Assembly (NCBI GenBank): GCA_025358305.1
Contig: JANYJZ010000018.1
Span: forward strand, 19,403-83,402
From: Ignavibacteriota bacterium
Lineage (GTDB): Bacteria > Bacteroidota > Ignavibacteria > UBA10030 > SZUA-254
Length of the DNA: 64,000 nt
Direction of reading: 5' to 3'
Below the pieces are notes generated by a model. It was given only the letters and a program-made list of their open reading frames with translations, was not told the DNA's origin and did no database searches. Both the position numbers and the translations under genes were made by a program. Shown here one piece after another: positions 9,218 to 63,237 of this stretch; positions within the stretch are counted from its first letter, which is position 1; each line of letters opens with the position of its first letter.

Positions 9218-9275
9218 ACGATACCCCTTTCGATAAGTGGATGTGCGATGCTTCAATACTTGTGCCGGCGCCCGC

Positions 9276-10295
9276 TCAGGCGCGTTGTGCTTCCGCCGTC
9301 TGGCGCTGTGCAAGCCATACTTCTGCGATCTGGACGGCGTTCGTTGCGGCACCCTTACGTAAATTGTCTGAGACGATCCAGAGGTGAAGCCCGGAAGCGA
9401 CGGTGGTGTCTCTCCGAATCCTGCCGACGAATACGTCGTCCTTTTCATGGGCCCATATCGGCATGGGATAGATGCTCTGGGCAACATCGTCCTGAACGGT
9501 AATCCCGGGTGAATGTCGCAGGAGTTCCATCACTGCGTCCAATTCGAACGGCCGTTCAAATTCAAGGTTCACTGATTCACTGTGGCCGCCGATCACCGGC
9601 ACCCGAACACACGTCGGGGCGATCTGGATCGAATCGTCATGCATGATCTTGCGCGTTTCCTGTACCATCTTGATCTCCTCACGCGTAAAACCCGCTTCGA
9701 CGAAGACATCGACCTGAGGCAGAGCATTATACGCGATCTGGTGCGGGAACTTCCGCTCCCCGAGAGGCTCCTGTGCGATCTCCGATTCGAGCTGCTTCAA
9801 CGCGCGTTTCCCGGCGCCGGTGACCGACTGGTAGGTCGACACGACAACGCGCTTGATGCGGAATCGCTCGTGGAGCGGTTGAAGGACGACGACCATTTGG
9901 ATCGTGGAGCAATTCGGGTTCGCGATGATCCCCTTGTGCCGACGGATGTCGCCCGGATTGACCTCGGGGACCACGAGCGGCACCACCGGGTCCATCCGAA
10001 ACGCGCTCGAATTATCGATGACAAGCGTCCCGAGGGCGGCAGCAATCGGCGCGAACTCCTTGCTTGCACGGGCGCCGGCGGAAAAGAGCGCGAGATCGAC
10101 TCCTACAAAGCTCCGCGGAGTCATCTCTTCGACGATGAGCGGCTTCCCGCTGAAACTTAGGACCTTTCCCGCCGATTGGGCGGTCGCGAGGAGCTTGAGC
10201 GAAGCGAGAGGAAAGTTGCGTTCTTCGAGGACCTGTATCATCTTCCTGCCGACGAGCCCTGTGGCTCCGGCAATGGCGACGTTCGGGTTCTTCAT
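9276..10295 (-). CDS. asd: Aspartate-semialdehyde dehydrogenase.
   Basis: The start was re-anchored to ATG 10295 (MKNPNVAIAGATGLVGRKM, Rossmann fold). Active-site region IANPNCSTIQMVVVL. The upstream 81 codons in the track are rejected as an extension. Confidence 0.9.
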   Translation of the reverse strand: MKNPNVAIAGATGLVGRKMIQVLEERNFPLASLKLLATAQSAGKVLSFSGKPLIVEEMTPRSFVGVDLALFSAGARASKEFAPIAAALGTLVIDNSSAFRMDPVVPLVVPEVNPGDIRRHKGIIANPNCSTIQMVVVLQPLHERFRIKRVVVSTYQSVTGAGKRALKQLESEIAQEPLGERKFPHQIAYNALPQVDVFVEAGFTREEIKMVQETRKIMHDDSIQIAPTCVRVPVIGGHSESVNLEFERPFELDAVMELLRHSPGITVQDDVAQSIYPMPIWAHEKDDVFVGRIRRDTTVASGLHLWIVSDNLRKGAATNAVQIAEVWLAQRQTAEAQRA

Positions 10296-25244: not shown

Positions 25245-27497
25245 TCATAACTCGCTTTCGGAGCGCGGGGAGGCATCAAGAATGCTGCGGATCTTCCGGG
25301 AGAAGCTGTCGATCTCATACGGCTTTTGAATGAATCCGTCGATCGCCCGTGCGAACTTGCCGTCGTCCAGCATCGTGGCGCTGTAGCCGCTGCAGACGAG
25401 TATCCGCAATGACGGGAAGAGTTCCTTGATCCGGTCGAACGTCTCCCGCCCTCCCATGCGCGGCATGTTCATGTCGAGGATGACGAGGTCAAACGGCTTG
25501 CCGGTTCCGGAGAGAAGATCCATCGCGTCGCGGCCGTTGCGTGCGATCTCCACGGTGTAGCCGAGGTCCGTCAGGAGGTCGTTGCCGACCTCCCCGATCG
25601 AGATCTCGTCCTCGACGAGAAGGATCCGCTCCTTGCCGCCGACGATCGGCTCCTGCGACTTTTTCACCTCGCGGATCGACCGGATCTCCGTGACTCGGGG
25701 AAAATACATGGTGAACACCGTGCCGCTGTTCAGTTCGCTGCTGACCGCGATGAGCGCCTGGTGGCTCCGCACGACGCCGTAGACGACCGAGAGGCCAAGG
25801 CCAGTCCCTTTGCCCTGCTCCTTCGTCGTGAAGAACGGCTCATAGATCTTGTTAAGGATCTGCGGCGAAATGCCCGTTCCTGAATCCACCACGGAGACCA
25901 GGACGTACTCGCCCGGTCTGCCGTCGGCGAATTGGGCGGCGATCTGATCGGTCATCGTGAACGGTTTGCAGTTGATGACGAGTATACCTCCGTTCGGCAT
26001 GGCATCGCGGGCATTGAGGCAGAGATTGAGGAATGCCTGCTGAAGCTGGCCTTCATCGCCGTTGACGATCGCCGGTTCCTGGGACAGCGTGCACTTGATG
26101 ACGATATTCTTCGAGGTCGTCGCCTCGAAGAGCTTGATCGTCTGGTCGAGGATCGTGTTCACATCGACGAAGTGGACGTGTGGGTTGTTCTTCCGGGCGA
26201 ACGTCAGGAGCTGCCTTGTGATCGCCGCGCCCCGCCGAGACGTCGTCTCGATGAGGTCCACATACTTCATCCAGCGCTCTTCGCCGCTCATCTTTCTCCG
26301 CATGATCGATGCGGAGCCGAGGATCGCGGTGAGGATGTTGTTGAAATCATGCGCGATGCCTCCCGCGAGGTTGCCGATGCTATCGATCTTCTGCACCTGC
26401 AGGAGCTTCTCCTCCATCCGCTTCTTCTCTGTGATATCCCGCATGACGATGCGGGCGAGGGTCGGCCTTCGGTCGGGTCCGTAGACGAGCGAGGCGCTGA
26501 CGCTCACGTCGATAAGGCTGCCGTCGGAGCGCAGGAGCCGCTCCTCGACGCCCCGGAGCTCCTCGCCGAACTCGAAGATCCGCAAGAGGTCCTCACGCAC
26601 GCGGTGGAACTGTGTATCAGGGAAGAGCCTTAAGAGCGGCTTCCCGATGATCTCGGCCTTCGGATACCCGAGGAGAGTGCTTTCGGTTTGGTTGCAGCTG
26701 ATGATGATCCCGTCTTGGTCGACGCTGTGGTACATGTCCGGGGAATGCTCGTAGAGGTCGACATAGAGACCCTCGGACTGCTTGACTTGTTCGAAGAGCG
26801 ACGCGTTGTTGAGGGCGACACTGATCTGGTTGCCGAACGCTTGGATGAGCGCGATCTTCTTTGATGAGAAGTTCTTCGCACCGCGGCCGGCGATGACCAT
26901 CACCCCTGCGAAGATGCCGTTCCGGATGAGGGGAATGGAGGCCAAGATCTCATTCTCGCGGGCGCGGAACGCCTCGTGCGTGTTGGTCTGTACGCGCGGT
27001 TCGGTTGCGCGGAGCATGCCGGGGTCCCAGATCCACTGGAGCGACGGATCGCTCGTGGAGCAGTCCGGCCGGAAAAAGGGGGTGAAGGTGCCGTGCTGGA
27101 AATGGAGGACGAGGCGCTCCCCCTCGACGAGATAGATCCATCCGCTGTCGGCCCGCATGAGTTCCATGACCTTCTCCAGCGCGGAGCGCAGGACGAGGTT
27201 GAGGTCCATGGAGTGGTTGACCGCCTCCGCGATCGTGTTGAGCTCCTGGAGTTCCCGGCGCTGGTCCTCGAGCATCCTCCCGTACTTCAGCGTGAAGTAC
27301 ACGCTGACATACCCGAAGACGCCGACGGTGAGGACGCTGATGAAGTCAAGCCACCCAAGTCGTTCTCCGATGAAGATGTGGGTCGTCACGATCGTCGCCA
27401 TCGCGACGATGACAGCCGTCGAGGCGACCACCTGAGATTGTTCGACAAGCCCCATGGACTTGAAGAACTGTCGGATGCTTTTGATGATGGCTTTCAT
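25245..27497 (-). CDS. Hybrid sensor histidine kinase (TM-GAF-PAS-HisKA-HATPase_c-REC).
   Basis: 750 aa. H-box GGIAHDFNNILTAI, N/G boxes (LNLCLNARDAM, DSGTGI, GTGLGLS), and a C-terminal receiver (ILLVEDE...DLVILDMNMP). Confidence 0.85.
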   Translation of the reverse strand: MKAIIKSIRQFFKSMGLVEQSQVVASTAVIVAMATIVTTHIFIGERLGWLDFISVLTVGVFGYVSVYFTLKYGRMLEDQRRELQELNTIAEAVNHSMDLNLVLRSALEKVMELMRADSGWIYLVEGERLVLHFQHGTFTPFFRPDCSTSDPSLQWIWDPGMLRATEPRVQTNTHEAFRARENEILASIPLIRNGIFAGVMVIAGRGAKNFSSKKIALIQAFGNQISVALNNASLFEQVKQSEGLYVDLYEHSPDMYHSVDQDGIIISCNQTESTLLGYPKAEIIGKPLLRLFPDTQFHRVREDLLRIFEFGEELRGVEERLLRSDGSLIDVSVSASLVYGPDRRPTLARIVMRDITEKKRMEEKLLQVQKIDSIGNLAGGIAHDFNNILTAILGSASIMRRKMSGEERWMKYVDLIETTSRRGAAITRQLLTFARKNNPHVHFVDVNTILDQTIKLFEATTSKNIVIKCTLSQEPAIVNGDEGQLQQAFLNLCLNARDAMPNGGILVINCKPFTMTDQIAAQFADGRPGEYVLVSVVDSGTGISPQILNKIYEPFFTTKEQGKGTGLGLSVVYGVVRSHQALIAVSSELNSGTVFTMYFPRVTEIRSIREVKKSQEPIVGGKERILLVEDEISIGEVGNDLLTDLGYTVEIARNGRDAMDLLSGTGKPFDLVILDMNMPRMGGRETFDRIKELFPSLRILVCSGYSATMLDDGKFARAIDGFIQKPYEIDSFSRKIRSILDASPRSESEL

Positions 27498-29662: not shown

Positions 29663-32182
29663 TCAGTGGAGAGAATCAACTGTGGCGCTGCGATCGACGA
29701 TGATGAGACCGGAGCTGACGGAATCCGCATGCGCCCGCGCGGCGAAGATCTCCCGGCGCAGTCCGACCGCCGCCGCATTTCCAGGCGCCTCGCCGATGGC
29801 CCGTTCATCCTCGTCGAGCGCAACCTCGTAGAGCTCGATGGCGCGGTAGAGCCGCGCCTCGCTCAGATGGAGGGCGCTCCGGGCCGCAGGGTCGCGGACC
29901 CAACAGAGGGAGTCGCTCGAGGCGAGCAGCTGGGAGAACGCCATGACGACCTGGTTCTTGGCATCCATCGCGCTGAGTTGACGGAAGTAATGGCGGGCGT
30001 CGGCGGTATCCCCGTTCTGCAAATTGAAATGGAATCCCCAGAGGAGCCCCCAGAAGTAACTGGAGTCGAGCCGCAGCGACTCGTCGCAGAGGTGCTCCGC
30101 GCGCTTTTTGTATCCCAGGTCCCAGTAGAGCCGGCCGAGGTCGTTCATCTTGATCGCCCGCTCCTGCGTGGGCGGTACTCCTTTGGCCGATAGCGCCACG
30201 TACATCGCGTCCAGATGCACGCGCGCGGTGTAGAGGAGCGATGCCGCCTGGGGCATCGCCATGAGCCGCTCATAGGAGCGTTGCGCCGCGAGGGAATCCC
30301 CTTCCATCGCAAAGGCCGTCACGGACTCGTAGATCGGGTCAGCCTGACCGGGCGCTCGCTCTGCCGCCCGCAGGTAGTACGCGGCCGCGCTCCGGTATTC
30401 CCCAGCGAGAAAGTGCGCCCTTCCCATCCGCAGAAGGCCCGCAGCCCTCAGAGAGTCAGGAATCGGCACGGCGCGCACTGGGGCGGCGGCGCCCGGGTTC
30501 CGAAGGAGCGATGTCACCTTGTACACATGGAGGTTCGCAGCGGCAAAGACGGAATCAAACCGGTAGCGCTCCGATTCCCCCATGAGAAACTCGTAGAGCT
30601 TGTAGTCCTCCCACTGCGTCTCGCTCAGGAGATACGACACGTCGTTATCGCGTATCATCTTCTCGAACAGGGGCAGGGTCAGGCCCGGGTTCGCTTCGAG
30701 CACTTTGCGAGTACCGACCATGATCGCGATCTGTTTCGCCGGGCTCGCAATGACGCTTTGTTCCGGGACGCTGTTGCGGATCCAATCCCCGACGAGGGCC
30801 CAGGGATAGGTGTAGGCGGTCGGATACGACGGCCGCTTGATGAGCTCCTGGTAGAACCCCATCGGCGATCGCCGGTACGACATGTTCGTCCCGATGATCT
30901 CGCCCATCAGCAGGAGATTCGGGAGCATGAGAAGGAGGACGAGCGGAACGAGCACGCGCGGACGGCCGAGCCCTTGCAGCAGCTCGATGTACCCGGACGC
31001 GAAGCGCGCTCCGGCGATGACGTAGTAGATCATCAAGGGGAGGATCGGAAAAAGGAACCGGATATCGTGCACCGGATAGACGAGTACGATGAGAAGGTAG
31101 CCCAGGAAGAGCGTACCTCGGAAGATCGCTCCGGCCCCCTCCTTGCGCTCCGCGGCGATCCCCGCCGCTCCCGCCAGGAGCACTGCCGCGATGACAAGGA
31201 GGCGGAGCGCCGAGGGAAACTGCGCCGGCGACATCGCAAGGTTCACCTGCCCACTGCCGTGGAGCGGGTAGAAGAGCATTCCGCCGAGCTCCCAGGCGTA
31301 CGCGTGGAGACTGAGCCAGACCCGCTGAGCGAGTTCCGATAAGAGGGGCGTCCCCGCCGGCGATACGAAGTGCTGGAAGACAAGGGCGCTGTTCGCCTTC
31401 GTCGAACCCTCAGGGAGGCGGACAAGGACCTGGTTTCGGACGTACCAGAGACCGAGGCAGAGCGCTGCGGCGCACACGAGCACCCCGGCGCGCATGAAGC
31501 GTCGCCGCAGGAGAAAATAGACGAAGATGGCGAGGACGGCGGCCACGCCGATCTCGCGCAACAGTCCGATCGTGCCCGCGAGGGCGACGAGGAGGATCCA
31601 CCGAGGCCCGGGCGCGGGGTCATCGATGACCCGGTCGGCGAGGAGAAGCATGGCGCAGAGACACGCGACAAAGGGCGCCTCCGAGAGAGCCTCCGAAGAG
31701 TAGACCAGGAGGAGAGGGTTGCAGACCAGGAGGAGCGTCCCGGCGAGCGCTGCCGTCTTGCCCATCCTGCTGCGCAACCAGCGGTGAAACAGGTAGAGCG
31801 CGAGCATCCCCCAGAGGATCGTCGCGACCTTGACGGCGGTGAGCGACCGCGGAAAGAAAAGTTCTACCGGAGCGAGTAGGACGGAATAGAACGGAGCATG
31901 TTCGACGAATTGCTGGACCTCCGGCTGCGTATCATCGACGAACCCCTTCCCGGAGGCGAGCGAGTTGCCCCAGATGACGTACCGGATGCTGTCGGGCGAG
32001 TAGAGCGAGAGGTCGTTCAATCGCAAGATCCCGGCGAGCAAGAAGGCCCCGAGAATGAGCGCAATGGCGTACCACGACGATCGGCCACCCGAAGGGATCG
32101 ACACAGGCCCGGTCACGCCTTCACCCGCGGGGTCCGCCGCATGGGACGAAAGACGGCGAACGCGACGCTGGTGTAATAGCAC
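29663..32182 (-). CDS. Polytopic membrane glycosyltransferase-like protein (PMT/ArnT-type GT-C fold) with C-terminal TPR repeats.
   Basis: 839 aa. It has about 12 N-terminal TM helices with loop motifs typical of the dolichyl-phosphate-mannose / ArnT family. The C-terminal roughly 300 aa are TPR-like (AAAYYLRAAERAPGQ..., GRLYWDLGYKKRAEHL...). The annotated 5' end overlaps the upstream ORF by 70 nt, so the true start is probably the GTG near 32113 or further downstream. Confidence 0.55.
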   Translation of the reverse strand: MLLHQRRVRRLSSHAADPAGEGVTGPVSIPSGGRSSWYAIALILGAFLLAGILRLNDLSLYSPDSIRYVIWGNSLASGKGFVDDTQPEVQQFVEHAPFYSVLLAPVELFFPRSLTAVKVATILWGMLALYLFHRWLRSRMGKTAALAGTLLLVCNPLLLVYSSEALSEAPFVACLCAMLLLADRVIDDPAPGPRWILLVALAGTIGLLREIGVAAVLAIFVYFLLRRRFMRAGVLVCAAALCLGLWYVRNQVLVRLPEGSTKANSALVFQHFVSPAGTPLLSELAQRVWLSLHAYAWELGGMLFYPLHGSGQVNLAMSPAQFPSALRLLVIAAVLLAGAAGIAAERKEGAGAIFRGTLFLGYLLIVLVYPVHDIRFLFPILPLMIYYVIAGARFASGYIELLQGLGRPRVLVPLVLLLMLPNLLLMGEIIGTNMSYRRSPMGFYQELIKRPSYPTAYTYPWALVGDWIRNSVPEQSVIASPAKQIAIMVGTRKVLEANPGLTLPLFEKMIRDNDVSYLLSETQWEDYKLYEFLMGESERYRFDSVFAAANLHVYKVTSLLRNPGAAAPVRAVPIPDSLRAAGLLRMGRAHFLAGEYRSAAAYYLRAAERAPGQADPIYESVTAFAMEGDSLAAQRSYERLMAMPQAASLLYTARVHLDAMYVALSAKGVPPTQERAIKMNDLGRLYWDLGYKKRAEHLCDESLRLDSSYFWGLLWGFHFNLQNGDTADARHYFRQLSAMDAKNQVVMAFSQLLASSDSLCWVRDPAARSALHLSEARLYRAIELYEVALDEDERAIGEAPGNAAAVGLRREIFAARAHADSVSSGLIIVDRSATVDSLH

Positions 32183-32634
32183 ATGAGCGCGATCATCGGG
32201 ACACCGGAGAGAGCTGCGAGGCGGTGGATGAAGAGCTTGCGAAATTCCACGAGATCATTCGAGCCCTGGTGGTCGAGAAGCCACATGCGGCCGTCCAGGA
32301 TCATCGTATAGATCTCGACCGGCGTAAAGAGGAAGAAGAGGATCGCGGCCGCGACGAGCCACCCGTTCTCCCGGAAGGTGAAACGGCAGGTCGCGAGATA
32401 CACAAAGGCGGAGACCCAGCAGGTGATGTACGCGACGCCGATGATGAGGGAACTCTGCGCCACGAGGCTGAAGACGGCCCGCTCGACGTATGGGTGGATG
32501 TTCGGCTTGAATTCGAGCGTCCCCACCTGGAGGAGGTCGAACCCGACGACGGCACGGACATTGAGGCCCCCGAGCCAGAACCCTGCGGAGAGGCAGAGGA
32601 CGAAGAGCGATATTTTTGCCGTGCGGTTTTCCAT
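32113..32634 (-). CDS. Hypothetical 4-TM membrane protein.
   Basis: 173 aa with four hydrophobic helices. It lies immediately upstream of the GT-C/TPR gene in the same operon. Confidence 0.5.
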   Translation of the reverse strand: MENRTAKISLFVLCLSAGFWLGGLNVRAVVGFDLLQVGTLEFKPNIHPYVERAVFSLVAQSSLIIGVAYITCWVSAFVYLATCRFTFRENGWLVAAAILFFLFTPVEIYTMILDGRMWLLDHQGSNDLVEFRKLFIHRLAALSGVPMIALMCYYTSVAFAVFRPMRRTPRVKA

Positions 32635-32716: not shown

Positions 32717-33139
32717 TTAGCGAGGCGAGCGTGCGTCGAGCATGTAGTTCTTCACCCAGCTCAGTTCGGCAAGGAGCGCCGTGAGGCTGGCCATGGAGCT
32801 CTGGGAGAGCGTGAGAAAGGTGTCGAGGATGTGTTGGCGAAACTCGCCGGGAGATTCCTTGATGATGGTCCGGAGGATCGTCGAGGTCTTTTCGAGCATC
32901 CGGTTGAGCTCCGCACCGAGCGGCACCGCGTCCGCATTGTCCGCCCCCACGCGCTTCAGGATGTGGAGCGCGTTCGTGACAAACTTGGCGTGGAACACGA
33001 GATCGTCGAAGAGCTGCTCGTGTGCGCGCGCGCGGGAGAGTTCCAGGAGCGTCACCATCTCCCGGCGGTACTGAAACGAGCGCTGCGCGAACGCCTCGGC
33101 GGCGGCGATGAAGGCGCGGGGCTCCTCCGGGGACGTCAT
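32717..33139 (-). CDS. Hypothetical alpha-helical protein co-transcribed with the sensor kinase.
   Basis: 140 aa, predicted all-alpha. Its start overlaps the histidine-kinase stop by 4 nt (33136-33139). Confidence 0.45.
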   Translation of the reverse strand: MTSPEEPRAFIAAAEAFAQRSFQYRREMVTLLELSRARAHEQLFDDLVFHAKFVTNALHILKRVGADNADAVPLGAELNRMLEKTSTILRTIIKESPGEFRQHILDTFLTLSQSSMASLTALLAELSWVKNYMLDARSPR

Positions 33140-34617
33140 CCAGGGAGGAGAACAGTGAAGGTCGAGCCGTGTCCGACCTCGCTTGCGACGCTCACGCGGC
33201 CGCCGTGGGCCTCCGTGACGTGCTTGACGAGGGCGAGGCCGAGTCCGGAGCCCTTCTCGTTGACGAGCGGGGTATTCTTTGCCTGGTAGAACTTTTCGAA
33301 GAGCTTCTCAAGGTCGGGTTTGGGGATGCCGACGCCGCTGTCTTGCACGTCGATCTGAACGCAGCCATTGGCGCTTGGCGTCACCCCTTCGCACTGCGCG
33401 CGTTTCGTGATGCGCACGGTGATCGTCCCCTGCTCCGGCGTATACTTCAGGGCATTCGAAAGGAGGTTGCTGAAGGCCTGGCTGATCCTGTCCTTGTCGA
33501 GCGAGAGAGTCCCGGTCTCCTCCGGGAGGAACTCGAGATTGATCGAGCGCGTTTGGGCGATGAGCTGTGCCTCGCCCACGAGCGGCGTGAGGACCTCGAT
33601 GAGGTTCTGCGGCGCAAAATTGAACTTCATAAGCCCCGCCTCCATCTTCGCGATGTCGAGGAAAGAGTTCACGAACTGGTTGATGCGGTTCGTCGCCTGG
33701 TGGATCATGCCGACGGCGTCGCGCTGGCGCTGGGTGAGGACCGGTCCGTCCTTCGTGTGGATGATGGAGTAGCACCCCGCCTTGATGACCTGGAGTGGCG
33801 TGCGCATCTCATGGGAAATCTCCGACATCATCTGCATGCGCATCTCGTCGAGCTGCTGCAGCTTCTCGCTCATGAGATTGAAGGCGCGCGTCAGATCCGC
33901 AACCTCGTCGTTCGTCGTCACCGGGACGGTCTCGTAGGTCCCTTCACCCACCTTCTCCGTGCCCGCCTTGAGCGCCTTGATCGGCTTCGTGAGCGTACGG
34001 ACCATCATGAATGTCAATCCGACGCCGATCGCGAGCGAGAGCATGAGACCCACGACCGCCGCCTCGATGGCGGTGTCCATCCGTTTCGGGATCTCGTCCT
34101 GGGTCCGCATCACGGGGCCGACGTATTTGTCGCGCATCGCGACGAGCATGCCGCGCAATGGGACGGCAAGTGCGTGTTCGCGAGCCTGCACCTCGAGGGT
34201 GTCGGCCGCGAGCCAGCCTCGGGCAAAGAGGGCTCGGACGAAGTCGTCGTACGCGAGATGGAAGCTCCGGATCGAATCGACCCTCGCCGAGTCCGTGAGG
34301 TCCGTCGCGCTGAGCGAGTCCTCGTTCGCGAGGAACCGCCTGTTGAACATCGCATAGAGCGCTGGGTCGTTGGGACCCGCATTACGCAGGACTTTCTGGG
34401 TCACAGTCTGCTGGGCGGAAAAATTGTCGATCATATCGAGCGTCATCTGGAGCTTGCGGTATTCGTTCGAACGTCCGCTCGCGAGCCCGCTCTGCAGCCC
34501 CTTGAGGATGGTGAGGCTGAATCCGATGATAATGACGATGACGATGATGACCCCGCCAAAGAACTTGCCGAAGAGGGAGGAACGACGGCGCGATATTTTT
34601 CGTGGCTGTTCGGTCAT
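33136..34617 (-). CDS. Sensor histidine kinase (TM-periplasmic sensor-TM-HAMP-HisKA-HATPase_c).
   Basis: 493 aa. TM1 is FGGVIIVIVIIIGF. A periplasmic domain of about 150 aa. HAMP is LTKPIKALKAGTEKVGEGTYE. H-box ISHEMRTPL. N, G1 and G2 boxes (LLSNALKYT, DSGVGI, GSGLGLA). Confidence 0.85.
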   Translation of the reverse strand: MTEQPRKISRRRSSLFGKFFGGVIIVIVIIIGFSLTILKGLQSGLASGRSNEYRKLQMTLDMIDNFSAQQTVTQKVLRNAGPNDPALYAMFNRRFLANEDSLSATDLTDSARVDSIRSFHLAYDDFVRALFARGWLAADTLEVQAREHALAVPLRGMLVAMRDKYVGPVMRTQDEIPKRMDTAIEAAVVGLMLSLAIGVGLTFMMVRTLTKPIKALKAGTEKVGEGTYETVPVTTNDEVADLTRAFNLMSEKLQQLDEMRMQMMSEISHEMRTPLQVIKAGCYSIIHTKDGPVLTQRQRDAVGMIHQATNRINQFVNSFLDIAKMEAGLMKFNFAPQNLIEVLTPLVGEAQLIAQTRSINLEFLPEETGTLSLDKDRISQAFSNLLSNALKYTPEQGTITVRITKRAQCEGVTPSANGCVQIDVQDSGVGIPKPDLEKLFEKFYQAKNTPLVNEKGSGLGLALVKHVTEAHGGRVSVASEVGHGSTFTVLLPG

Positions 34618-34823
34618 GCGGTGCGTTCAGTAAGCGAACTCAGAGGGTGCCGGCGGCAAGACGACGAAAGCCGGATTCCTGAGAGCCCTCGAGAGGCGCC
34701 TTCTTGCGGCGCTCCCCCCTTGCTCACGGGAATCCGGCTTCTCTTCGCCATGGAAATATGTTCTCGTCTGATGTTCGATGCGGGGGAAAGATAGGCCAGA
34801 ATTAGCAGAAAGTCAAATGCGCC

Positions 34824-34858
34824 AGGAATTTGCAAAGAATTCCTCCATTATGTACATT
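34824..34858 (+). promoter_or_regulatory. Candidate sigma-70 promoter (TTGCAA-17-TACATT) overlapped by a perfect inverted repeat AGGAATT-N7-AATTCCT, upstream of the cytochrome-porin gene.
   Basis: The palindrome spans 34824-34844. The -35-like TTGCAA is at 34830-34835 and the -10-like TACATT is at 34853-34858, 47 nt upstream of ATG 34905. Confidence 0.4.
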
Positions 34859-34904
34859 TATCGAGCTCAATAACTGTTCATTCACCGTACGCTACGGGGG
34901 TATC

Positions 34905-36065
34905 ATGCGTGGATTTTCGTGCACGTTCGCGTGCGTTCTGTTCATCCTCACGTTCTGGTCGGGGGCGCTCGCGCTGCCGCGGTTCGCACTCATGGCCGGG
35001 GCAAAATGCGGGTCCTGCCACGTCAATCCGACCGGGGGTCAGATACGGACCGACTACGGTCTGAGCTACGGGATGGACGCCCTCCCCTTGCGGACGGGCA
35101 AGGGCGAAGGCGACGACGCCGGTTTCACGTTCAACCCGAAACTCTCCGAGAACTTCACCATCGGCGCCGATTTCCGGCGGCAGTTCATCATAGAACAGAC
35201 GGGCGGTGCCTCGGCGTTCCACTTGATGACGATGTCGCTCTACGGCTCCGTACAGCTCCAGAAAAGGCTTGTCTTCTTCTTCAAGCAGGACCTCGTCAAC
35301 GAGACGTACGGCGCCCTGGGCGGCCCCGAGGTCTTCATCGTGGCGAAGATCCTCCCCGGAGGCTGGTACGTCAAGGGCGGTGACTTCCTTCCTGATTACG
35401 GATGGCGCCTGGACGACCACACCGCCTACGTCCGCGGGGGCGACCTCGGGTTCCTCCCGGGGTTTGCGGGCCACGCAGGGCTCATCTTCCTCCCCAACTA
35501 CAAGGACATCGGCATGGAGTTCGGCGGATATGCCGGAGGGTTCTTCATCACGGCGGGCGTCTTCAGCGGAAGCGGGAACACGCAGAAGATCTACTTCGAG
35601 AACGATAAAGCCTATAGCGCGAAGATCGAGTACAGCGGGAACATCGAGTCGGTCAATTTCCGGCTCGGGGCGTCGGGGTACGGCTATAAAAGCTACAAAA
35701 TGGGGGGTATTCACGCCGGTCTTGGGACGGCGGATGTCGCCCTGCTGGGGGAGGTTGACGTCACGCACAACACGATCGATCCGTTTGCCGTACCTTCTCC
35801 GGGGGACATCAATGAGTCGGGACGCGCCATGGCCGCCTACGGGGAACTCGACATCCGCGCGGTCCAGGGTGTCTGGTTCACCGGCAAGTACGACGTCTTC
35901 GACCCGATACGCGGCGTCACCGGCGATGCGCTGAAGCGGCTGACCATCGGGATGGAATTTTTCCCCTATCCCTTCGTCGAGTTCCGGCCCCAGTACCGGC
36001 TCGCCATGGAAACGCCGAGCATCGACAATAACACGGGCCTCGTGCAGCTGCACGTCTGGTTCTAA
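34905..36065 (+). CDS. Cyc2-like fused monoheme cytochrome c / outer-membrane beta-barrel (porin-cytochrome) protein.
   Basis: The start was re-anchored to ATG 34905 (MRGFSCTFACVLFILTFWSGALA, a signal peptide). A single CxxCH (AKCGSCHVNP) lies about 10 residues after the predicted cleavage site. The remaining roughly 360 aa are Gly/aromatic-rich with an alternating beta-strand pattern, and the protein ends ...LVQLHVWF (C-terminal Phe, an outer-membrane beta-barrel signature). Confidence 0.65.
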   Translation: MRGFSCTFACVLFILTFWSGALALPRFALMAGAKCGSCHVNPTGGQIRTDYGLSYGMDALPLRTGKGEGDDAGFTFNPKLSENFTIGADFRRQFIIEQTGGASAFHLMTMSLYGSVQLQKRLVFFFKQDLVNETYGALGGPEVFIVAKILPGGWYVKGGDFLPDYGWRLDDHTAYVRGGDLGFLPGFAGHAGLIFLPNYKDIGMEFGGYAGGFFITAGVFSGSGNTQKIYFENDKAYSAKIEYSGNIESVNFRLGASGYGYKSYKMGGIHAGLGTADVALLGEVDVTHNTIDPFAVPSPGDINESGRAMAAYGELDIRAVQGVWFTGKYDVFDPIRGVTGDALKRLTIGMEFFPYPFVEFRPQYRLAMETPSIDNNTGLVQLHVWF

Positions 36066-36094
36066 CATTCACTTTATCGCGGATAGATCATCTC

Positions 36095-36505
36095 ATGAAC
36101 GCAAGAACATTCGTCCTTTTCGGCCTCCTCTGCGCCCTCTCTCTCGGCGCTGCGTGGGCGTACCAGCAGACCAAGAGACAACCGAAGCCGAAACCGGCCG
36201 TCAAGCTCGTCTCTTTCAAGAAGGACGTCGCGCCCGTCCTGAAGAAATACTGCCTCCCGTGCCACACAGAGGAAATGATGAACCCGAGCGAACTCTATCT
36301 TGATAGCTACGAGAACCTCGCATTGGGAGGGAAGCACGGCAAGCCTATCGTCGCCGGCGCGCCCGACTCGAGCCTCCTCATGCAGAAGCTCTCCGCGAAG
36401 GCGCCGTTCGGGGACCGGATGCCCCTGAAGCTCAAAACGCCGTTCCCCGACGACACGCTGAAGGTCCTGAGCGAGTGGATCCTTCAGGGAGCGAAGAACA
36501 ACTGA
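36095..36505 (+). CDS. Periplasmic monoheme c-type cytochrome with a PSCyt1-type (Planctomycete cytochrome C) domain.
   Basis: 136 aa with a signal peptide (MNARTFVLFGLLCALSLGAAWA). FKKDVAPVLKKYCLPCH...LYLDSYENLALGGKHGKPIVAGAPDSSLLMQKL...RMP...LSEWILQGA matches the PSCyt1 consensus block by block. Confidence 0.75.
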   Translation: MNARTFVLFGLLCALSLGAAWAYQQTKRQPKPKPAVKLVSFKKDVAPVLKKYCLPCHTEEMMNPSELYLDSYENLALGGKHGKPIVAGAPDSSLLMQKLSAKAPFGDRMPLKLKTPFPDDTLKVLSEWILQGAKNN

Positions 36506-36533
36506 TATCTGCCTCCACTCTACGACACGAACC

Positions 36534-37688
36534 ATGGCGAATTTGACGCACACACAGAAGCTCCAAGTGGATGATTGGCTGCGCGTCGCGGACCAGTTCA
36601 TCCGCGCAGGGCGCTACATCGCAGCGGACGAGATGCTGCAGAAGGTCTTCCAGTCCGATGCGGGCAATGAGATCGCCCGCTCGTACGAGGACCGCATCGA
36701 GTTCCTCATCAAGCAGCTCTCGCAGCGCGTGGGGCTCAACAACGACATTCAGGGTGAGATACGGAAGTACCAGACGATCCACCTCCAGCGAAGGACGAAC
36801 CAGATCCAGTCCGTGCTCATCGGGGCGCAGCGCCTCCTCGACGACGGCTACCTCAAGAAGGCCGCGGAGCAGGGTGCCAAGGCGCTCGTGCTCGACCCGG
36901 AGAACGCCTACGCGCGGGCGTTCGTCCAGCGGGTCACCGAGCTCCAGCGTGAGGCCGGCACGCACGAGGGAAGCGATAACGACCTGAAGTTCCGCGCACT
37001 CCTCATCGAAGCGTGGCGCGACGGTGCGCCCTCCGCGGCGCAGGAAACCGTCCTGGCCCGCCTGCAGCTCGAGTTCCTCATCCCCGAGGCGAATCGGCAC
37101 GAGCTCGAGCGCGACGCGAAGAACCAACTCTACAAGGAGCAGCTCCATTCCATCTGGCTCACCGGTGGGATCTCGTCCTTCACGCCGGGACTTGCCGAAA
37201 GCCTTCGGGAGAAGTTCGGCGTCTCGCGCACGGACTATACAGCGATCGAGACCTCCGTCCTGAGGGAGGTGCGGAAGAACCGGATCAAGGGCACGGTGCT
37301 CGTCGTAGACGAGAACGACGCGTCACTGCTCGAACTGACAACGACGCTCCGGACGAACGGCTACGCCGTCGTCGCCGCGGGGTCGTTCGGCGAGGTGCTG
37401 GCATCCATCAGGGAATTCACGCCCGACGTCATCCTATGCGAACTCTACGTCGGGAACGAGTCGTCGGGGCTCGACGTGTACGAACTCATCCGGAAGACGG
37501 GCGTGACACGGTACGCGCCGTTCTTCTTCCTCGCCGACAAGGTGGACCGGTCAACCGAGATCATCGCCCGGCGGCTCGGGGTCGGCGGGTTCTTCACCCG
37601 GCCCATCGATACCGAGATGCTCCTGGCGACGATCGGCGGCAGGATCGACCACGTGCGCACTCTCCGCGTCGCCGAAACGGCCCCCTAG
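36534..37688 (+). CDS. Response-regulator receiver protein with an N-terminal TPR-like/helical domain (REC at the C-terminus, no DNA-binding output domain).
   Basis: 384 aa. The C-terminal REC domain has GTVLVVDENDASL..., the phospho-acceptor D in DVILCELYV, T/S and K motifs, and ...YAPFFFLADK. The N-terminal roughly 250 aa are helical repeats. Confidence 0.75.
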   Translation: MANLTHTQKLQVDDWLRVADQFIRAGRYIAADEMLQKVFQSDAGNEIARSYEDRIEFLIKQLSQRVGLNNDIQGEIRKYQTIHLQRRTNQIQSVLIGAQRLLDDGYLKKAAEQGAKALVLDPENAYARAFVQRVTELQREAGTHEGSDNDLKFRALLIEAWRDGAPSAAQETVLARLQLEFLIPEANRHELERDAKNQLYKEQLHSIWLTGGISSFTPGLAESLREKFGVSRTDYTAIETSVLREVRKNRIKGTVLVVDENDASLLELTTTLRTNGYAVVAAGSFGEVLASIREFTPDVILCELYVGNESSGLDVYELIRKTGVTRYAPFFFLADKVDRSTEIIARRLGVGGFFTRPIDTEMLLATIGGRIDHVRTLRVAETAP

Positions 37689-38827: not shown

Positions 38828-39574
38828 ATGTATTCGAGAACGCGGTCACAGTTCACGCCGGCTGATTACCGGTTCATTGCCGAGACGCTCTCCCGTGATC
38901 CGTCGCAGCGCAGGGCGATCGTGCGACTCACCGATGACCCGGTTTGCGTGACGTCGATGCTCCACAGCCGGGAGCTCTTCGACCGCTCGATGACGGTGCC
39001 GCCGCTCTTCCTTTCGATCTCGCCGCACCTCTTCTTCTATGTATTCGTCTACCAGGCCCTCGAGAAGCGGGGCGTCGACGACGACGTCGTCGATTACGTA
39101 GCGGCGGTCTGCGTGGAGTTCCGTTCGAGCGCCTCATTCTGGCATCTCGCGCGGACCGAAGGCGGCCGGGCGCTCTACATGGTCGACCTCCTCAATACAC
39201 TCGCGGACGCCGACCGCGCGCAGCAGTATCAACTCCGGCGCTATATCGGGAACGCAACGCTCTTTCTCACCGGGTTCTTCCCCGATTTCATCTTCCGCCG
39301 GAGCCAGGACCGCAGCGCGCCCCCTCTAACCTACTATGAAGCGATCGGCCGGAGCCAGTACGGCACGGCCGCGGGCGAATCGACCGCGTACGACGGGGAC
39401 GCGGCGGCGGTGCTCGCCACCCTCGCCGAACGCTTTGTCGATATCCGCTGCGCGATGAACGTCTACACTGACGCCTACCTGAGCCTCGCCGGACGCGGAC
39501 GAACCCTGCAGGTCCTCCAGCGCCAGACCAAGACGCTCGACGAAGAGGGCTTGCGGGACTCGCTCGAACTTTGA
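38828..39574 (+). CDS. Hypothetical protein (248 aa).
   Basis: A clear ORF preceded by a strong promoter-like element. No recognisable motif, no signal peptide. Confidence 0.5.
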   Translation: MYSRTRSQFTPADYRFIAETLSRDPSQRRAIVRLTDDPVCVTSMLHSRELFDRSMTVPPLFLSISPHLFFYVFVYQALEKRGVDDDVVDYVAAVCVEFRSSASFWHLARTEGGRALYMVDLLNTLADADRAQQYQLRRYIGNATLFLTGFFPDFIFRRSQDRSAPPLTYYEAIGRSQYGTAAGESTAYDGDAAAVLATLAERFVDIRCAMNVYTDAYLSLAGRGRTLQVLQRQTKTLDEEGLRDSLEL

Positions 39575-39679: not shown

Positions 39680-40420
39680 TTATTTGACGCTCGCGGCGAG
39701 GAACTCCCTGTTGAGACGCGCGATGTGCGTGACGGAGATCTCCTTCGGACATTCCGCTTCGCAGGCAAGCGTGTTGGAACAGCCGCCGAAGCCTTCGGCG
39801 TCCATCTGCGCGACCATGCCGAGTACGCGCGCCTCCCTCTCGGGCTTTCCCTGGGGCAGGAGTGCGAGCTGGGAGACCTTCGCGCTCAGGAAGAGCATCG
39901 CGGAGGAATTCTTGCACGCCGCGACGCACGCCCCGCAGCCGATGCAGGCCGCCGCGTCGAATGCCTCGTCGGCGACGACCTTTGGAATGGGGATGACGTT
40001 CCCGTCCGGCACTCCGCCCGTATCCACCGTGACGTAGCCGCCAGCCTGGATGATCCGGTCGAGTCCGGAGCGGTCCACGACGAGGTCCTTGATCACAGGG
40101 AACGCCTTCGCGCGCCACGGCTCGATGGTGATCGGCTCGGATTCCTTGAAGGACCGCATGTAGAGCTGGCACGTCGCGACGCCCCTCGCCGGACCGTGCG
40201 CACGGCCGTTGATATACATGCCGCAAGTTCCGCAGATGCCTTCCCGGCAGTCATGGTCGAAGGCGATCGTGTCGTGGCCGTTCCTGGCGAGATCGAGATT
40301 CACAAGGTCGATCATCTCGAGGAACGACATGTCGGGAGAGATATTGGAAGCAGTGTACTCGACCATCTTCCCTTGCGCGGCGCTGCTGGTTTGGCGCCAG
40401 ACCTTCAGTGTAAAATTCAT
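39680..40420 (-). CDS. sdhB: Succinate dehydrogenase / fumarate reductase iron-sulfur subunit.
   Basis: 246 aa. 2Fe-2S cluster [11 protein letters not shown]. 4Fe-4S/3Fe-4S clusters [11 protein letters not shown] and [12 protein letters not shown]. Confidence 0.9.
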
Positions 40421-40466
40421 AGAGCGTCAGTAAGTCTGTGAGTCGTCGTTGTCGTTGATGTCTGCG

Positions 40467-42380
40467 TTACTTGTAGCTGCGCTGCGAGGGTTTCACATCC
40501 TCGAACGCGAGCGGCTCCTTGTGGAGCTCGGGCGGTGCGCCCTGTCCCTTGAACTCCCAGGCGGAGACGTAGGAGAACTTCTCGTCGTTGCGCTTTGCTT
40601 CCCCTTCCGGGGTCTGATACTCCTCCCGGAAATGCCCGCCGCAGGATTCCTCGCGCTGGAGCGCATCGCGCACCATGAGTTCGGCGAGTTCCATAAAATC
40701 GGCGACGCGGCCCGCCTTCTCGACCTCCGCATTGAAGTCCTCCGCGCTGCCCGGGACGCGTACGTCCTTCCAGAACTCGCTCCGTAACTCAGGTATGAGC
40801 GTGAGGGCCTTCGTAAGGCCGGCGGCGGTGCGTCCCATGCCGCAGAACTCCCACATGATCTTCCCGAGCCGCTTGTGGAACTCGTCGACGGTCTGTTTTC
40901 CGTTGACGGCGAGAAGCCGCTTCGTGAGGTCTGCGGCGCCTGCAAGCGCTTCTTTGAACGCCGGGTGGTCCGGCGTCACCGGAGGGAATGAAGTCGTGGC
41001 GAGGTAGTCGCCGACGGTGTAGGGGATGATAAAATATCCGTCGGCGAGCCCCTGCATGAGCGCACTCGCGCCGAGACGGTTTGCTCCGTGGTCGGAAAAG
41101 TTCGCCTCGCCGAGGACATATGTCCCCGGGATCGTGCTCATGAGGTTGTAATCGACCCAGAGCCCACCCATGGTGTAGTGGACGGCCGGGTAGATCCGCA
41201 TCGGGACCTCGTAGGCGTTCTCTGCGGTGATCTCGTGATACATGTCGAATAGGTTGCCATATTGCTGCTTCACCCACTCCTTGCCGTTGCGCTTGATCGT
41301 GTCGCTGAAATCGAGGTAGACCGCGAGACCCGTCGAACCGACGCCGTGCCCCTTGTCGCACATTTCCTTCGCACGGCGCGAAGCGACGTCTCGAGGAACG
41401 AGGTTGCCGAAGGAGGGGTAGAGCCGTTCGAGGTAATAATCGCGCTCGTCCTCGGGGATCTCCCGGGGATTACGCTTGTCGCCCGCCTTCTTCGGGACCC
41501 AGATGCGCCCGTCGTTCCGCAGGCTCTCGCTCATGAGAGTGAGTTTCGACTGGTGTTCGCTCGAAACGGGGATGCAGGTCGGGTGGATCTGCGTGAAACA
41601 GGGGTTGCCGAAGAACGCTCCGCGCTTGTATGCGCGCCAGATGGCCGTCGCGTTGCATTGTTTCGCGTTCGTCGAGAGGTAGAACACGTTCCCGTAACCG
41701 CCGGTCGCCAAGATCACGGCGTCGGCGACGTAGGTCTCGAGGGCTCCCGTGATGAGGTTCCGAGCAACGATGCCCCGAGCGTGACCGTCGACAAGGACAA
41801 GGTCGACCATCTCGCGCCGGGGATAGAACTTCACTTTCTTACCGTCGATCTCCTTCGAGAGGGCCTGATACGCCCCGAGGAGAAGCTGTTGGCCGGTCTG
41901 GCCTCTGGCGTAGAACGTCCGCGAGACTTGCGCACCGCCAAAGGAGCGGTTGTCGAGGAGCCCGCCGTATTCGCGCGCGAACGGGACGCCTTGGGCGACG
42001 CACTGATCGATGATACTGCCGCTCACCTGTGCGAGGCGATAGACGTTCGCTTCCCGCGCACGGTAGTCGCCCCCCTTCACGGTGTCGTAGAAGAGCCTCC
42101 AGATGCTGTCGCCGTCGTTCTTGTAGTTCTTCGGCGCGTTGATGCCGCCCTGTGCGGCGATGCTGTGTGCGCGCCGCGGAGACTCGTGGTAGCAGATCGA
42201 GGTGACGTTGTAGCCGAGTTCGGCGAGAGAGGCCGCCGCCGAGGCGCCCGCGAGCCCGGTGCCGACGACGATGACGTGGTACTTCCGTTTGTTCGCGGGG
42301 TTGACGAGCTTCAGGCCGAAGCGGTGGTTGTCCCACTTCTCTTGGACGGGTCCGGCCGGTATCTTCGATTGTAGGGTCAT
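40467..42380 (-). CDS. sdhA: Succinate dehydrogenase / fumarate reductase flavoprotein subunit.
   Basis: The start was re-anchored to ATG 42380 ([16 protein letters not shown]...). FAD-binding motif [14 protein letters not shown]. Covalent-FAD histidine region [10 protein letters not shown]. Active-site motif HYTMGG. The 114-codon N-extension in the track is rejected. Confidence 0.9.
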
Positions 42381-43033
42381 GGGTTTATCAGGAAATAGAC
42401 GGGCATGGAGATGAAACCGAGCGGGATGAGGAGCCAGAAGACCATACCCGCCAAGTGAATGAGGGGCGCATACTTCTGCTTCTTGATCCCGAATGTCTGA
42501 AACGCCGACTGGAAGCCGTGGCGCAGGTGGAACGCGAGGAGCGCGATCGCGACGATGTAGAACGCGCAGTACACCGGGTCCGAGAAGGCCGCGCGTACGA
42601 GCTGGTACATGGACGGATTCTCCGCGGCGTAGAACCGCGAGGCGACCCAGAACGTCCGCAAGTGGACGACAAGAAAGATGAACACGATGCTCCCGGTGAG
42701 GAACATCGTGCGCGACATCCACGTGCTGTTCTCCGACACGTCGTTCCGGACGTACTTTTCCGGCCGGGCGCCCCTGTTCGTCAGCCAGGTGATCGTCCCC
42801 GTGACGAGATGGAGGATGAACCCGGCGAACAGGACGATCTCCATCGTGCGGATAAAGAGGTTCGTCGACATGAACATGCCGTACGCGTCGAACGCGGCGC
42901 CGCCGTCATGCTTGAAGAGGAGAAAGTTCCCGCTGAGGTGGACGACGAGGAAGCTGCAGAGAAAGAGGCCCGTCAGGCCCATGACAAACTTCTTGCCGAC
43001 GGAGGAATGATACAAGGTAGCGAACAGTCCCAT
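42377..43033 (-). CDS. sdhC: Succinate dehydrogenase cytochrome b subunit (b558 family, 5-TM).
   Basis: The start was re-anchored to ATG 43033 ([23 protein letters not shown]...). Five TM helices with conserved His residues. It overlaps sdhA by 4 nt. Confidence 0.8.
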
Positions 43034-62956: not shown

Positions 62957-63237
62957 GGTGTTCCCGCGTAAGAAATGGAATTCAGTCCGACTGAAGTAGA
63001 TATAATCTATAAAAAATCGGCAGAATTGCAATTTCTTCACGATGGGGGTGATACCTTCACATCGCAGACAGGTCCTTCGAAGTGCTCACAAACAGTCAAG
63101 CGTCGGATCGATTGGACGCGCAATTCCCTCGTGCCATCGACACTGCTCCCTTGCCAGCGGTGCTGGCGCTGATCGCGCAGGAAGATAGATCCCCGCCGAG
63201 AGTTCACGACCACCTGCGGTGGGCTCTGGTTCCACAC

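Follow-up and report, generated by a model that had tools for sequence, protein, structure and literature searches.

Cyc2 is the main genetic marker for microbial Fe(II) oxidation in metagenomes, where it is recognised through a specific motif. How, then, is a protein family to be understood that has the architecture of Cyc2 and a homologous heme segment, yet fails this motif? The question is raised by a locus in a stretch of 64,000 nucleotides from an Ignavibacteriota bacterium (contig JANYJZ010000018.1, positions 19,403 to 83,402; "the window" in the following denotes this whole stretch), which belongs to a lineage abundant in sediments, aquifers, soils and bioreactors. At this locus, a gene for a 386-aa protein, predicted to be a monoheme c-type cytochrome fused to an outer-membrane porin, is followed by a gene for a small secreted cytochrome c. 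These two are the only open reading frames (ORFs) with a CxxCH motif in the window. A preliminary description, made from the sequence alone, had assigned the larger protein to the Cyc2 type and had combined both cytochromes with a divergent histidine kinase and a response regulator to a regulated module; all four ORFs were found at the positions named there (Table 1). The reading that we favour, and regard as probable, is that of a two-gene outer-membrane electron-transfer module in which a Cyc2-like monoheme porin would act together with a periplasmic cytochrome of FoxE fold, probably on iron.

The cytochrome-porin and its family

By inspection, the N-terminus of the 386-aa protein, MRGFSCTFACVLFILTFWSGALA/LPRFALMAGAKCGSCHVNPTGG (the slash marks the predicted cut), can be read as a Sec signal peptide that is cleaved at an AxA site, and the AlphaFold2 model has a helix at residues 2-19. 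The single CGSCH occupies residues 35-39, its first Cys being mature residue 12, so that signal peptide and heme motif are arranged as had been described. Residues 84-386 contain 14.5% Gly and 15.5% aromatic residues and the last residue is Phe, in keeping with the Gly/aromatic-rich, beta-strand-like remainder noted before. Searches of Pfam, NCBIfam and PDB sequences at permissive thresholds gave no match for this protein. At E <= 1e-3, 501 homologues were found, of which all those with a source name are called 'hypothetical protein' and none has a precomputed Pfam domain; the named homologues are mostly from metagenome-assembled genomes (MAGs) of Ignavibacteria or Bacteroidota. In a scan with one genome per GTDB species, relatives were present in 525 stretches and hence in about 525 species genomes. 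The best 80 of these 525 come from Ignavibacteria, Ignavibacteriaceae, Melioribacter(aceae), Kryptoniota and unclassified Bacteroidota MAGs, with a few other bin labels. MAGs assigned to Melioribacter and to Ignavibacterium both carry the family.

For comparisons across the family, a set of 114 sequences was taken from the best 120 of the 501 matches (P0001-P0120), reaching down to ~33% identity. C35, C38 and H39 are present in 110 of the 110 members that cover these columns, each of which has exactly one CxxCH. In a 37-sequence alignment (to ~37% identity) the three residues are likewise invariant within LPRFAL..G..C..CH.NPTGG..R. The invariant or nearly invariant residues of the heme signature are L24, P25, R26, F/Y27, A28, G32, C35, C38, H39, P42, G44, G45 and R48, and Met108, His172 and His383 are found in all 114 sequences. 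Being invariant across the family, the heme motif is under strong selection and not due to chance; the conservation in orthologues that the preliminary description had proposed as a check is complete. The idea of a chance CxxCH in an ordinary porin was rejected for the same reason.

The motif is lacking in 10 of the 120 matches, which are fragments or gene calls truncated at the N-terminus. Five proteins (P0077, P0080, P0082, P0090, P0091) begin at an internal Met of the conserved GGQMRN and so have neither signal peptide nor heme motif; such starts are likely start-codon miscalls, which mask the cytochrome nature of the protein. One family member, on a 5.3-kb contig (JAEOUE010000170.1, L054), is binned in a MAG of the Asgard archaeon 'Candidatus Hodarchaeum mangrovi', most likely as a result of bin contamination by an Ignavibacteria-type contig.

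The AlphaFold2 model computed from the 37-sequence alignment (pTM 0.71, mean pLDDT 68) shows 16 beta strands over residues 84-385. The modelled barrel of ~16 strands over residues 84-386 thus agrees with the 16 strands that had been anticipated, and its best match among solved structures is OprP. Confidence is low in the heme segment (residues 18-76) and in one long loop, which is to be expected since the model contains no heme. According to DSSP, strands 5 and 6 are joined by the longest loop, which is at the position of the L3 constriction loop of classical porins and holds FLPDYGWRLDDHTAYVRGGD...PNYKDIG.E.G. Conservation of this loop is extremely high, many of its acidic residues being invariant, and the conserved residues of barrel and loop are predominantly acidic. 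We infer that the block at the L3 position forms a constriction, and the invariant His172 within this loop is a candidate for the sixth heme ligand. OprP/OprO and the 16-strand porins Omp32, PorB and OmpU share 9-15% identity with the window porin and have no heme segment; the conserved acidic loop would argue against anion selectivity of the window porin.

Relationship to Cyc2

Cyc2 has been defined by a signal peptide, one CXXCH, a 16-strand porin like OprO/OprP (4RJW, 2O4V) and a length of at least 365 aa, together with the motif AXPXFAR[Q/K][T/Y] upstream of the CXXCH, which is called unique to Cyc2, and a PXL motif that follows the CXXCH at four residues; sequences without PXFAR[Q/K][T/Y] were dropped from the Cyc2 tree by Keffer et al. 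2021 (PMC8406198). The window porin has the signal peptide (ending ALA/LP), the single N-terminal CXXCH, the OprO/OprP-like porin of 16 strands and, with 386 aa, the length of a Cyc2, but it has neither of the two motifs. Upstream of the heme it reads ALPRFALMA, and P.FAR or the strict motif occurs in 0 of 113 members. Downstream, CH-VN-PTG takes the place of PxL, which is found in 0 of 107 members vs 79 of 85 Cyc2 reference sequences. What is kept is AxPxFA, with a spacing of 8 from the Phe to the first Cys in 102 of 107 family members and in 85 of 85 Cyc2 sequences and with Gly at F+5; Leu or Val stands at the position of the invariant Arg of Cyc2. Because both family-specific motifs are absent, the window family is not to be filed as Cyc2, and the label 'Cyc2 type' has to be given up; with our own hidden Markov model (HMM) of Cyc2, the window protein reaches 11.0 bits. 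On the basis of its sequence, the window porin is a member of a Cyc2-like sister family and a distant relative of Cyc2 rather than a Cyc2 itself.

The Cyc2 reference set was assembled with a bait based on the published Cyc2 consensus, which yielded N-terminal fragments of frameshifted or partial genes reading AVPAFARQTGMACSACHFQHFPLLNGFGRAFK. A profile of these fragments found 4,789 proteins at E <= 0.001 among 1.84 billion representative proteins, and among the best 150 there were 148 additional ones, 96 of them full length. Each of these 96 proteins has exactly one CxxCH, and 61 have the strict motif. The named relatives of the set are MAG proteins from Deltaproteobacteria, Nitrospirota, Methylomirabilis and Methylophilaceae, and one relative is annotated 'OprO/OprP family phosphate-selective porin'. 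A cluster look-up and a homologue search for named iron-oxidiser isolates in the set returned MAG proteins only. On three metagenome contigs, frameshifts break canonical Cyc2-type genes up into barrel fragments and an N-terminal call of ~100-130 aa (L084:3001-4700, L085:3001-4471, L086:3001-4350); the split gene of L085 is followed by an outer-membrane beta-barrel gene and two c-type cytochrome genes.

An HMM of 94 Cyc2 sequences scored all 114 sequences of the window family (median 15.6, max 29.3 bits), with maxima of 3.2 bits for shuffled and 6.0 bits for reversed controls. The reciprocal search with the family HMM against Cyc2 gave a median of 14.7 bits (control max 5.1 shuffled, 4.0 reversed), and N-terminal HMMs gave ~25 bits in both directions. 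When the two families were compared by hhalign, a co-linear alignment over 332 columns was obtained (95.6%, E 1.3e-8; reversed control 0.7%), and the mature heme segments without signal peptides aligned over 34 columns (95.6%, E 1.3e-8). Some pairwise BLAST alignments run over 95-157 residues and into the first strands, with up to ~37% identity. At whole-library scale, the Cyc2 heme-domain profile would find the best family member at E 0.0073 and the window protein at E 15; because these E-values are so weak, the family carries no annotation. As judged by these profile comparisons, the window family is homologous to Cyc2 through the heme segment, and we consider both the family and its remote Cyc2 homology computationally solid. 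The fused monoheme-cytochrome/16-strand porin architecture proposed earlier is therefore real, with Cyc2 as its closest known relative. A YG[FW][ER]L element shared by both families at the L3 position was too weak to count.

Set beside Cyc2 of M. ferrooxydans PV-1 and A. ferrooxidans and Cyt572 of Leptospirillum, the window family has in common the signal peptide, the CxxCH at about mature residue 12, the AxPxFA...G..CxxCH spacing, an OprP-like 16-strand barrel, a length of ~390-450 aa and an aromatic C-terminus, and its gene, too, often lies beside that of a periplasmic monoheme cytochrome. In contrast to Cyc2, it has Leu/Val for the Arg of FAR, lacks [Q/K][T/Y] and continues after the heme with xxPxGGxxRNx[FY]G instead of xxxxPxLNxFG. 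Its L3 block YGWRLDDHTxYxRGGD and the invariant M108, H172 and H383 have no counterpart in the Cyc2 consensus, and the barrel sequences of the two families are not significantly alignable. Their ranges differ as well: Cyc2 is found mainly in Proteobacteria, Chlorobium and Nitrospirota, the window family in Ignavibacteria, Kryptoniota and Bacteroidota.

Cytochrome partners of the porin

The product of the gene downstream of the porin gene matches Pfam PSCyt1 (PF07635) with 28.9 bits, the gathering score being 22, which bears out the secreted monoheme PSCyt1 cytochrome of the preliminary description. Its gene lies directly 3' of the porin gene in 14 of 21 close loci (at least 44% identity), and with a gap of 29 bp the two genes are likely co-transcribed. 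The orthologues keep CLPCH and PFGDxMP, and the latter (PFGDRMP in the window) likely supplies the Met ligand. The only solved relative of this cytochrome is FoxE (5MAB), which was found at E 3.9e-4 with the single sequence and at E 6.9e-9 (38.9 bits) with a profile of the orthologues; the match to the second heme domain is strong and that to the first weak. In the photoferrotroph R. ferrooxidans SW2, FoxE has been described as the iron oxidoreductase (PMC11570789, PMC5359306). Like the 136-aa protein it is a secreted c-type cytochrome, and its domain 2 (residues 200-289; PDB 5MAB/5MVO) aligns at CxxCH, (E)L.L.(S/T)YE, the Met of drMP and the C-terminal WI.QGAK. The window cytochrome is nevertheless not FoxE itself: FoxE is a di-heme protein of two domains and 291 aa (solved chain) encoded in the foxEYZ operon, whereas the 136-aa protein has one heme domain and is encoded beside a cytochrome-porin. 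Since the PSCyt1 cytochrome is homologous to the FoxE heme domains, the link to iron is stronger than the preliminary description had assumed. Going by sequence similarity, both proteins of the pair have iron oxidoreductases, Cyc2 and FoxE, as their closest characterised relatives. With a FoxE-related cytochrome adjoining a Cyc2-related heme porin, the pair is probably engaged in the transfer of electrons across the outer membrane.

Next to the porin gene, 19 of 78 loci have a gene for a CxxCH protein. Seven loci of Melioribacter type (L039, L065, L066, L070, L075, L079, L081) have, directly upstream of the porin gene and on the same strand, at a distance of 58-136 bp, a gene for a secreted monoheme protein of ~222 aa. 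Of the seven upstream proteins, the three that were scanned have matches to Pfam Temptin_C (46-61 bits), and with Por_Secre_tail, the sorting domain of the type IX secretion system (T9SS), they score 29.8, 30.1 and 26.9 bits vs a cut-off of 27. In hhalign, their heme segment CxNCHxxPxGGGxRNxFGQ is matched to that of the window family with 96.3% and E 1.6e-9 (reversed control 0.4%). The Melioribacter-type upstream protein would thus be a c-type cytochrome that T9SS delivers to the cell surface. Temptin_C-like T9SS monoheme proteins (PF24784 and Por_Secre_tail) share the heme segment CxxCHxxPxGGxxRNxFG with the cytochrome-porins and differ from them in length (~222 aa), in having no barrel and in their T9SS C-terminal domain; none is encoded in the window. 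In a Kryptoniota MAG a third type of partner was observed, a 134-aa di-heme cytochrome encoded upstream of the porin gene (L058:5574-5978, plus strand) with a CytoC_RC-like Pfam match of 53 bits.

Kinase and pseudo-receiver

The divergently transcribed gene upstream of the porin gene encodes a HAMP histidine kinase with a periplasmic region, as had been recognised: HAMP (46 bits), HisKA (46.4 bits) and HATPase_c (104 bits) were matched in Pfam, two hydrophobic segments (~13-38 and ~183-207) bracket ~140 periplasmic residues, and 287 bp separate both genes. A sigma-70 scan of this spacer gave a single weak match on the minus strand, Bacteroidota-type promoters being outside the scan, and the promoter and terminator scan with the sigma-70 model revealed nothing informative. 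The three plus-strand genes follow each other with gaps of 29 bp between porin and PSCyt1 genes and of 28 bp between PSCyt1 and receiver genes.

In the 384-aa product of the third gene, a receiver domain is found at residues 255-367 (Pfam Response_reg, 41.8 bits). Thus, the C-terminal position of the receiver stands, whereas the TPR-like N-terminal domain assumed in addition found no support in Pfam, which, TPR included, gave no match at E <= 0.1 for the N-terminal ~250 residues. The position of the phospho-acceptor, D57 of CheY, is occupied by Glu303 in the window and by Glu in 7 of 7 orthologues, so that the Asp of canonical receivers is replaced in 8 of 8 proteins. The equivalent of CheY Lys109 is kept in the orthologues and is Arg in the window. 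The protein is therefore, by prediction, an Asp-less pseudo-receiver, and as it has no acceptor Asp, a simple phosphorelay from kinase to regulator is unlikely.

The receiver gene is present in 7 of the 21 close loci, each time together with the PSCyt1 gene, and the kinase gene is adjacent and divergent in 12 of the 21 (5 contig-truncated). The distant clade, with 33-37% identity, is represented by 59 loci, and in none of them does the kinase, PSCyt1, receiver or 248-aa ORF gene (see below) lie beside the porin gene. Because these neighbours are confined to the closest clade, the association with the kinase may be lineage synteny; a kinase/regulator module conserved across the whole family was rejected. 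The regulated module of the preliminary description is thus weakened on two counts, the Glu of the receiver and the clade-specific neighbourhood, and in the window the porin and its cytochrome may still be controlled by the kinase and the pseudo-receiver.

A possible mechanism and its alternatives

In the mechanism that we propose, heme c would be located at the periplasmic end of, or inside, the narrow 16-strand pore. A small soluble redox species, most plausibly Fe2+, would enter the pore and exchange one electron with the barrel-associated heme; the FoxE-like cytochrome of the periplasm would then take over the electron and hand it on to the respiratory chain. Fe2+ appears the most plausible solute because of the analogy with Cyc2 and FoxE and because of the acidic conserved residues in barrel and loop. 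In Melioribacter-type relatives the upstream T9SS-exported surface cytochrome would, instead or in addition, link the porin heme to extracellular partners, so that in some lineages the pore heme may be connected with a carrier at the surface, an arrangement that would permit outward flow too. A broader proposal, which we put forward only tentatively and hold to be possible rather than probable, is that in Ignavibacteria, Kryptoniota and related Bacteroidota this sister family of Cyc2 serves as the electron gate in the outer membrane, with FoxE-like cytochromes inside and, in Melioribacteraceae, T9SS cytochromes outside.

Several observations weigh against an electron-transfer module for iron. 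Both Cyc2 motifs are absent, as described above, and the reference set used for comparison is Cyc2 by the published motif criteria and not by accessions of named iron oxidisers. The heme segment has a pLDDT below 50 in the AlphaFold2 model, which does not show where the segment sits with respect to the barrel. Barrel-only comparisons are not significant, either with HMMs (max 10.6, median 0.8 bits vs 5.3 for shuffles) or with hhalign (2.7%, E 0.017 vs ~0.1 for controls), so that the homology to Cyc2 rests on a segment of ~35-50 residues. Since the PSCyt1 domain is widespread, the match to FoxE reflects homology of a domain family and not orthology. In the distant clade, the porin gene is mostly alone beside dxr- and rseP-like genes on the opposite strand (N-termini only) and has no redox partner, and genes for cytochrome maturation or terminal oxidases are absent from the 64-kb window. 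The lineage is mainly organoheterotrophic. As the gene mostly stands alone in a heterotrophic lineage, a constitutive, non-lithotrophic role is as likely as an energy-yielding Fe(II) oxidation.

Two alternatives concern the closeness of the relationship to Cyc2. If the porin were a bona fide Cyc2, i.e. a dedicated Fe(II) oxidase for lithotrophic or microaerophilic iron oxidation under two-component control, this would agree with the common architecture, the OprP-like barrel, the remote homology of the heme segment, the FoxE-like partner and the FeGenie surveys that report iron-oxidation genes in Ignavibacteriales MAGs (PMC8478452, PMC13594681). We consider it quite improbable in view of the two motifs (0/113 and 0/107), the upstream one being that whose absence led Keffer et al. 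to exclude sequences, and of the library-scale E-values of the Cyc2 heme-domain profile for the best family member and the window protein. The receiver without acceptor Asp, the clade-specific regulatory neighbours, the near-universal occurrence of the family in a heterotrophic class, mostly as a stand-alone gene, and the undetected expression of the Ignavibacteriaceae MAG in PMC13594681 point in the same direction. Conversely, the resemblance to Cyc2 might be convergent or confined to a mobile heme-binding peptide, an unrelated Bacteroidota porin having been combined with a generic CxxCH module. The barrel-only comparisons would be in line with this, as would the post-heme half, for which the match to the Temptin_C-like T9SS cytochromes is no weaker than that to Cyc2. 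However, both families keep an identical register from the signal-peptidase site through AxPxFA...G..CxxCH and align co-linearly over their full length, the BLAST alignments of 95-157 residues reach the first strands with up to ~37% identity, and OprP is the best structural template of both. Moreover, Cyc2 barrels themselves diverge to ~17-22% identity between clusters (Keffer et al. 2021, PMC8406198). Convergence is therefore given little credence here.

The direction and purpose of electron flow are the subject of the other two. An outward conduit for extracellular electron transfer, by which periplasmic electrons would reach outside acceptors such as Fe(III), humic substances or surface cytochromes via the porin heme in anaerobic respiration, is suggested by the T9SS-exported, presumably surface-anchored cytochrome upstream in the seven Melioribacter-type loci, by the description of Ignavibacteria as iron reducers (PMC7914226) and by Cyc2-like genes in Fe(III)-reducing taxa (PMC6344600). 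However, one heme in a pore of ~3.5 A could not, in the view of Keffer et al., span the membrane (PMC8406198), and the known reductive conduits are multiheme wires in 26-strand barrels. MtrCAB, MtoAB and PioAB also combine an outer-membrane beta-barrel with c-type heme for electron transfer across the outer membrane, but they do so with separate polypeptides, 26-strand barrels and decaheme wires (PMC8406198), whereas the window protein combines 16 strands and one heme in a single chain. As the partner in the window's own clade is periplasmic and not at the surface, and as both closest known relatives, Cyc2 and FoxE, are oxidases, an outward conduit seems rather unlikely to us. A housekeeping porin with a non-respiratory heme, serving in the oxidation of entering Fe2+ against iron toxicity or Fenton chemistry, in peroxide scavenging or in envelope redox sensing, would suit a family that occurs in about 525 species genomes, mostly alone beside the dxr- and rseP-like genes and without redox partners, and whose barrel loop is so strongly conserved in its acidic residues. 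Canonical Cyc2 homologues, too, are known from Burkholderia, Ralstonia and Xanthomonas, which are not iron oxidisers (PMC8406198). Against it stand the cytochrome partners encoded next to the porin gene in 19 of 78 loci and the fact that nothing ties the locus to stress regulons, and we assign it a low probability.

Previous work and implications

Iron-oxidation genes in Ignavibacteriales and Ignavibacteriaceae MAGs have been reported in surveys with FeGenie (PMC8478452, PMC13594681). According to per-site FeGenie counts, Cyc2 cluster 3 is the dominant iron-oxidation gene type at the DeMMO sites concerned; being given per site, these counts tie it neither to the Ignavibacteriales MAGs nor to the window family. 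He et al. 2019 described a Cyc2-like gene in an Ignavibacteriaceae MAG on the basis of BLASTP at 1e-5 against A. ferrooxidans Cyc2, a gene that may or may not belong to the window family (PMC6344600). None of these three papers contains a description of the window family, its motif, its FoxE-like or T9SS partners or its breadth, and the other papers on Cyc2 that we consulted (including PMC8406198) do not mention Ignavibacteria or Bacteroidota. Thus, the statement of the preliminary description that the module is uncharacterised in this lineage is correct as far as the protein is concerned, but not for iron-oxidation or Cyc2-like genes in general, which had already been surveyed in Ignavibacteriales (PMC8478452, PMC13594681, PMC6344600).

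Should the family be active on iron, the iron-cycling potential of Ignavibacteria-type heterotrophs would be under-counted, or mis-assigned where loose HMM cut-offs catch the family, and the evolutionary history of Cyc2 would need a deeper outgroup. If these proteins are indeed electron gates, there would be a capacity for iron or extracellular redox reactions that motif-based definitions of Cyc2 exclude and that searches with Cyc2 profiles barely detect. To our knowledge, type IX secretion would also be connected here with extracellular electron transfer for the first time. Concrete hypotheses follow from the pairing with a FoxE-like cytochrome, or with a T9SS-exported cytochrome in relatives. 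Cultured species exist in both Melioribacter (M. roseus) and Ignavibacterium (I. album). Because of this, and because MAGs of both genera carry the family, these hypotheses should be testable there.

Features of the locus and other genes in the window

Table 1. Positions of the features discussed. Positions refer to the window unless a locus of a relative is named.
Feature	Position	Strand	Remarks
Predicted fused monoheme c-type cytochrome/16-strand outer-membrane porin, 386 aa	34905..36065	+	Cyc2-like family, no annotation
Signal peptide, residues 1-23, predicted cleavage ALA/LPRF	34905..34973	+	direct reading, AlphaFold2 helix 2-19, start Met aligned across family
Heme-binding signature ALPRFALMAGAKCGSCHVNPTGGQIRTDYG, residues 23-52	34971..35060	+	CGSCH at 35007-35021
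Predicted beta-barrel, residues 84-386, ~16 strands, aromatic beta-signal ...QLHVWF at end	35154..36062	+	
Most conserved family block FLPDYGWRLDDHTAYVRGGD...PNYKDIGMEFG	35385..35525	+	conservation and DSSP loop position
Secreted monoheme PSCyt1-type cytochrome c, 136 aa	36095..36505	+	CLPCH 36251-36265 (residues 53-57); PFGDRMP 36404-36424
384-aa protein, N-terminal domain without family and C-terminal receiver	36534..37688	+	receiver nt 37296-37634; Glu303 nt 37440-37442
Sensor histidine kinase, 493 aa: transmembrane segment, periplasmic ~140 aa, transmembrane segment, HAMP, HisKA, HATPase_c	33136..34617	-	Pfam, hydropathy
Divergent intergenic spacer kinase/cytochrome-porin, 287 bp, presumed promoter region	34618..34904	.	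coordinates
Upstream monoheme cytochrome genes of relatives	L079:5201-5869 (+); L039:5233-5943; L065:4499-5164; L066:476-1150		
Upstream monoheme cytochrome genes of relatives, continued	L070:5252-5926; L075:5224-5889; L081:5185-5919		

Beyond the kinase gene, a 140-aa ORF (32717-33139, minus strand) overlaps the stop codon of the kinase gene by 4 nt and is followed by a hydrophobic-looking 173-aa ORF (32113-32634, minus strand). Neither has a match in Pfam or NCBIfam; by tblastn, they are present in 8 and 10 related loci, respectively, mostly beside the kinase gene. The 140-aa ORF contains a stretch LHILKRVG that is reminiscent of HPt phosphotransfer motifs. Downstream of the locus, a 248-aa ORF (38828-39574, plus strand), again without Pfam or NCBIfam match, is followed in the window by convergent sdhB and sdhA genes (39680-42722). 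This ORF lies downstream of the porin locus in 15 of 21 close relatives, and its link to the cytochrome-porin locus is probably one of synteny only. A gene for a hybrid sensor kinase of 750 aa (GAF, PAS, HisKA, HATPase_c, REC; 25245-27497, minus strand) lies 8 kb upstream of the locus.

The preliminary description had also named a TlpA/ResA-like CxxC pair at 8112-9217 as supporting context. The two ORFs (8112-8639 and 8636-9487, both minus strand) belong to the AhpC-TSA/Redoxin family, a CxxC is seen in the first of them only, and the second ends at 9487 and not at 9217. At 25 kb from the cytochrome genes the pair is specific evidence for nothing, and a functional link with the locus was rejected because of this distance. 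The assignment of the DNA to a T9SS-bearing lineage of Bacteroidota type, in turn, is borne out by a gene at 59678-63040 (minus strand) for a secreted protein of 1120 aa with a Lamin-tail domain, two PLD-like domains and a C-terminal T9SS sorting domain.

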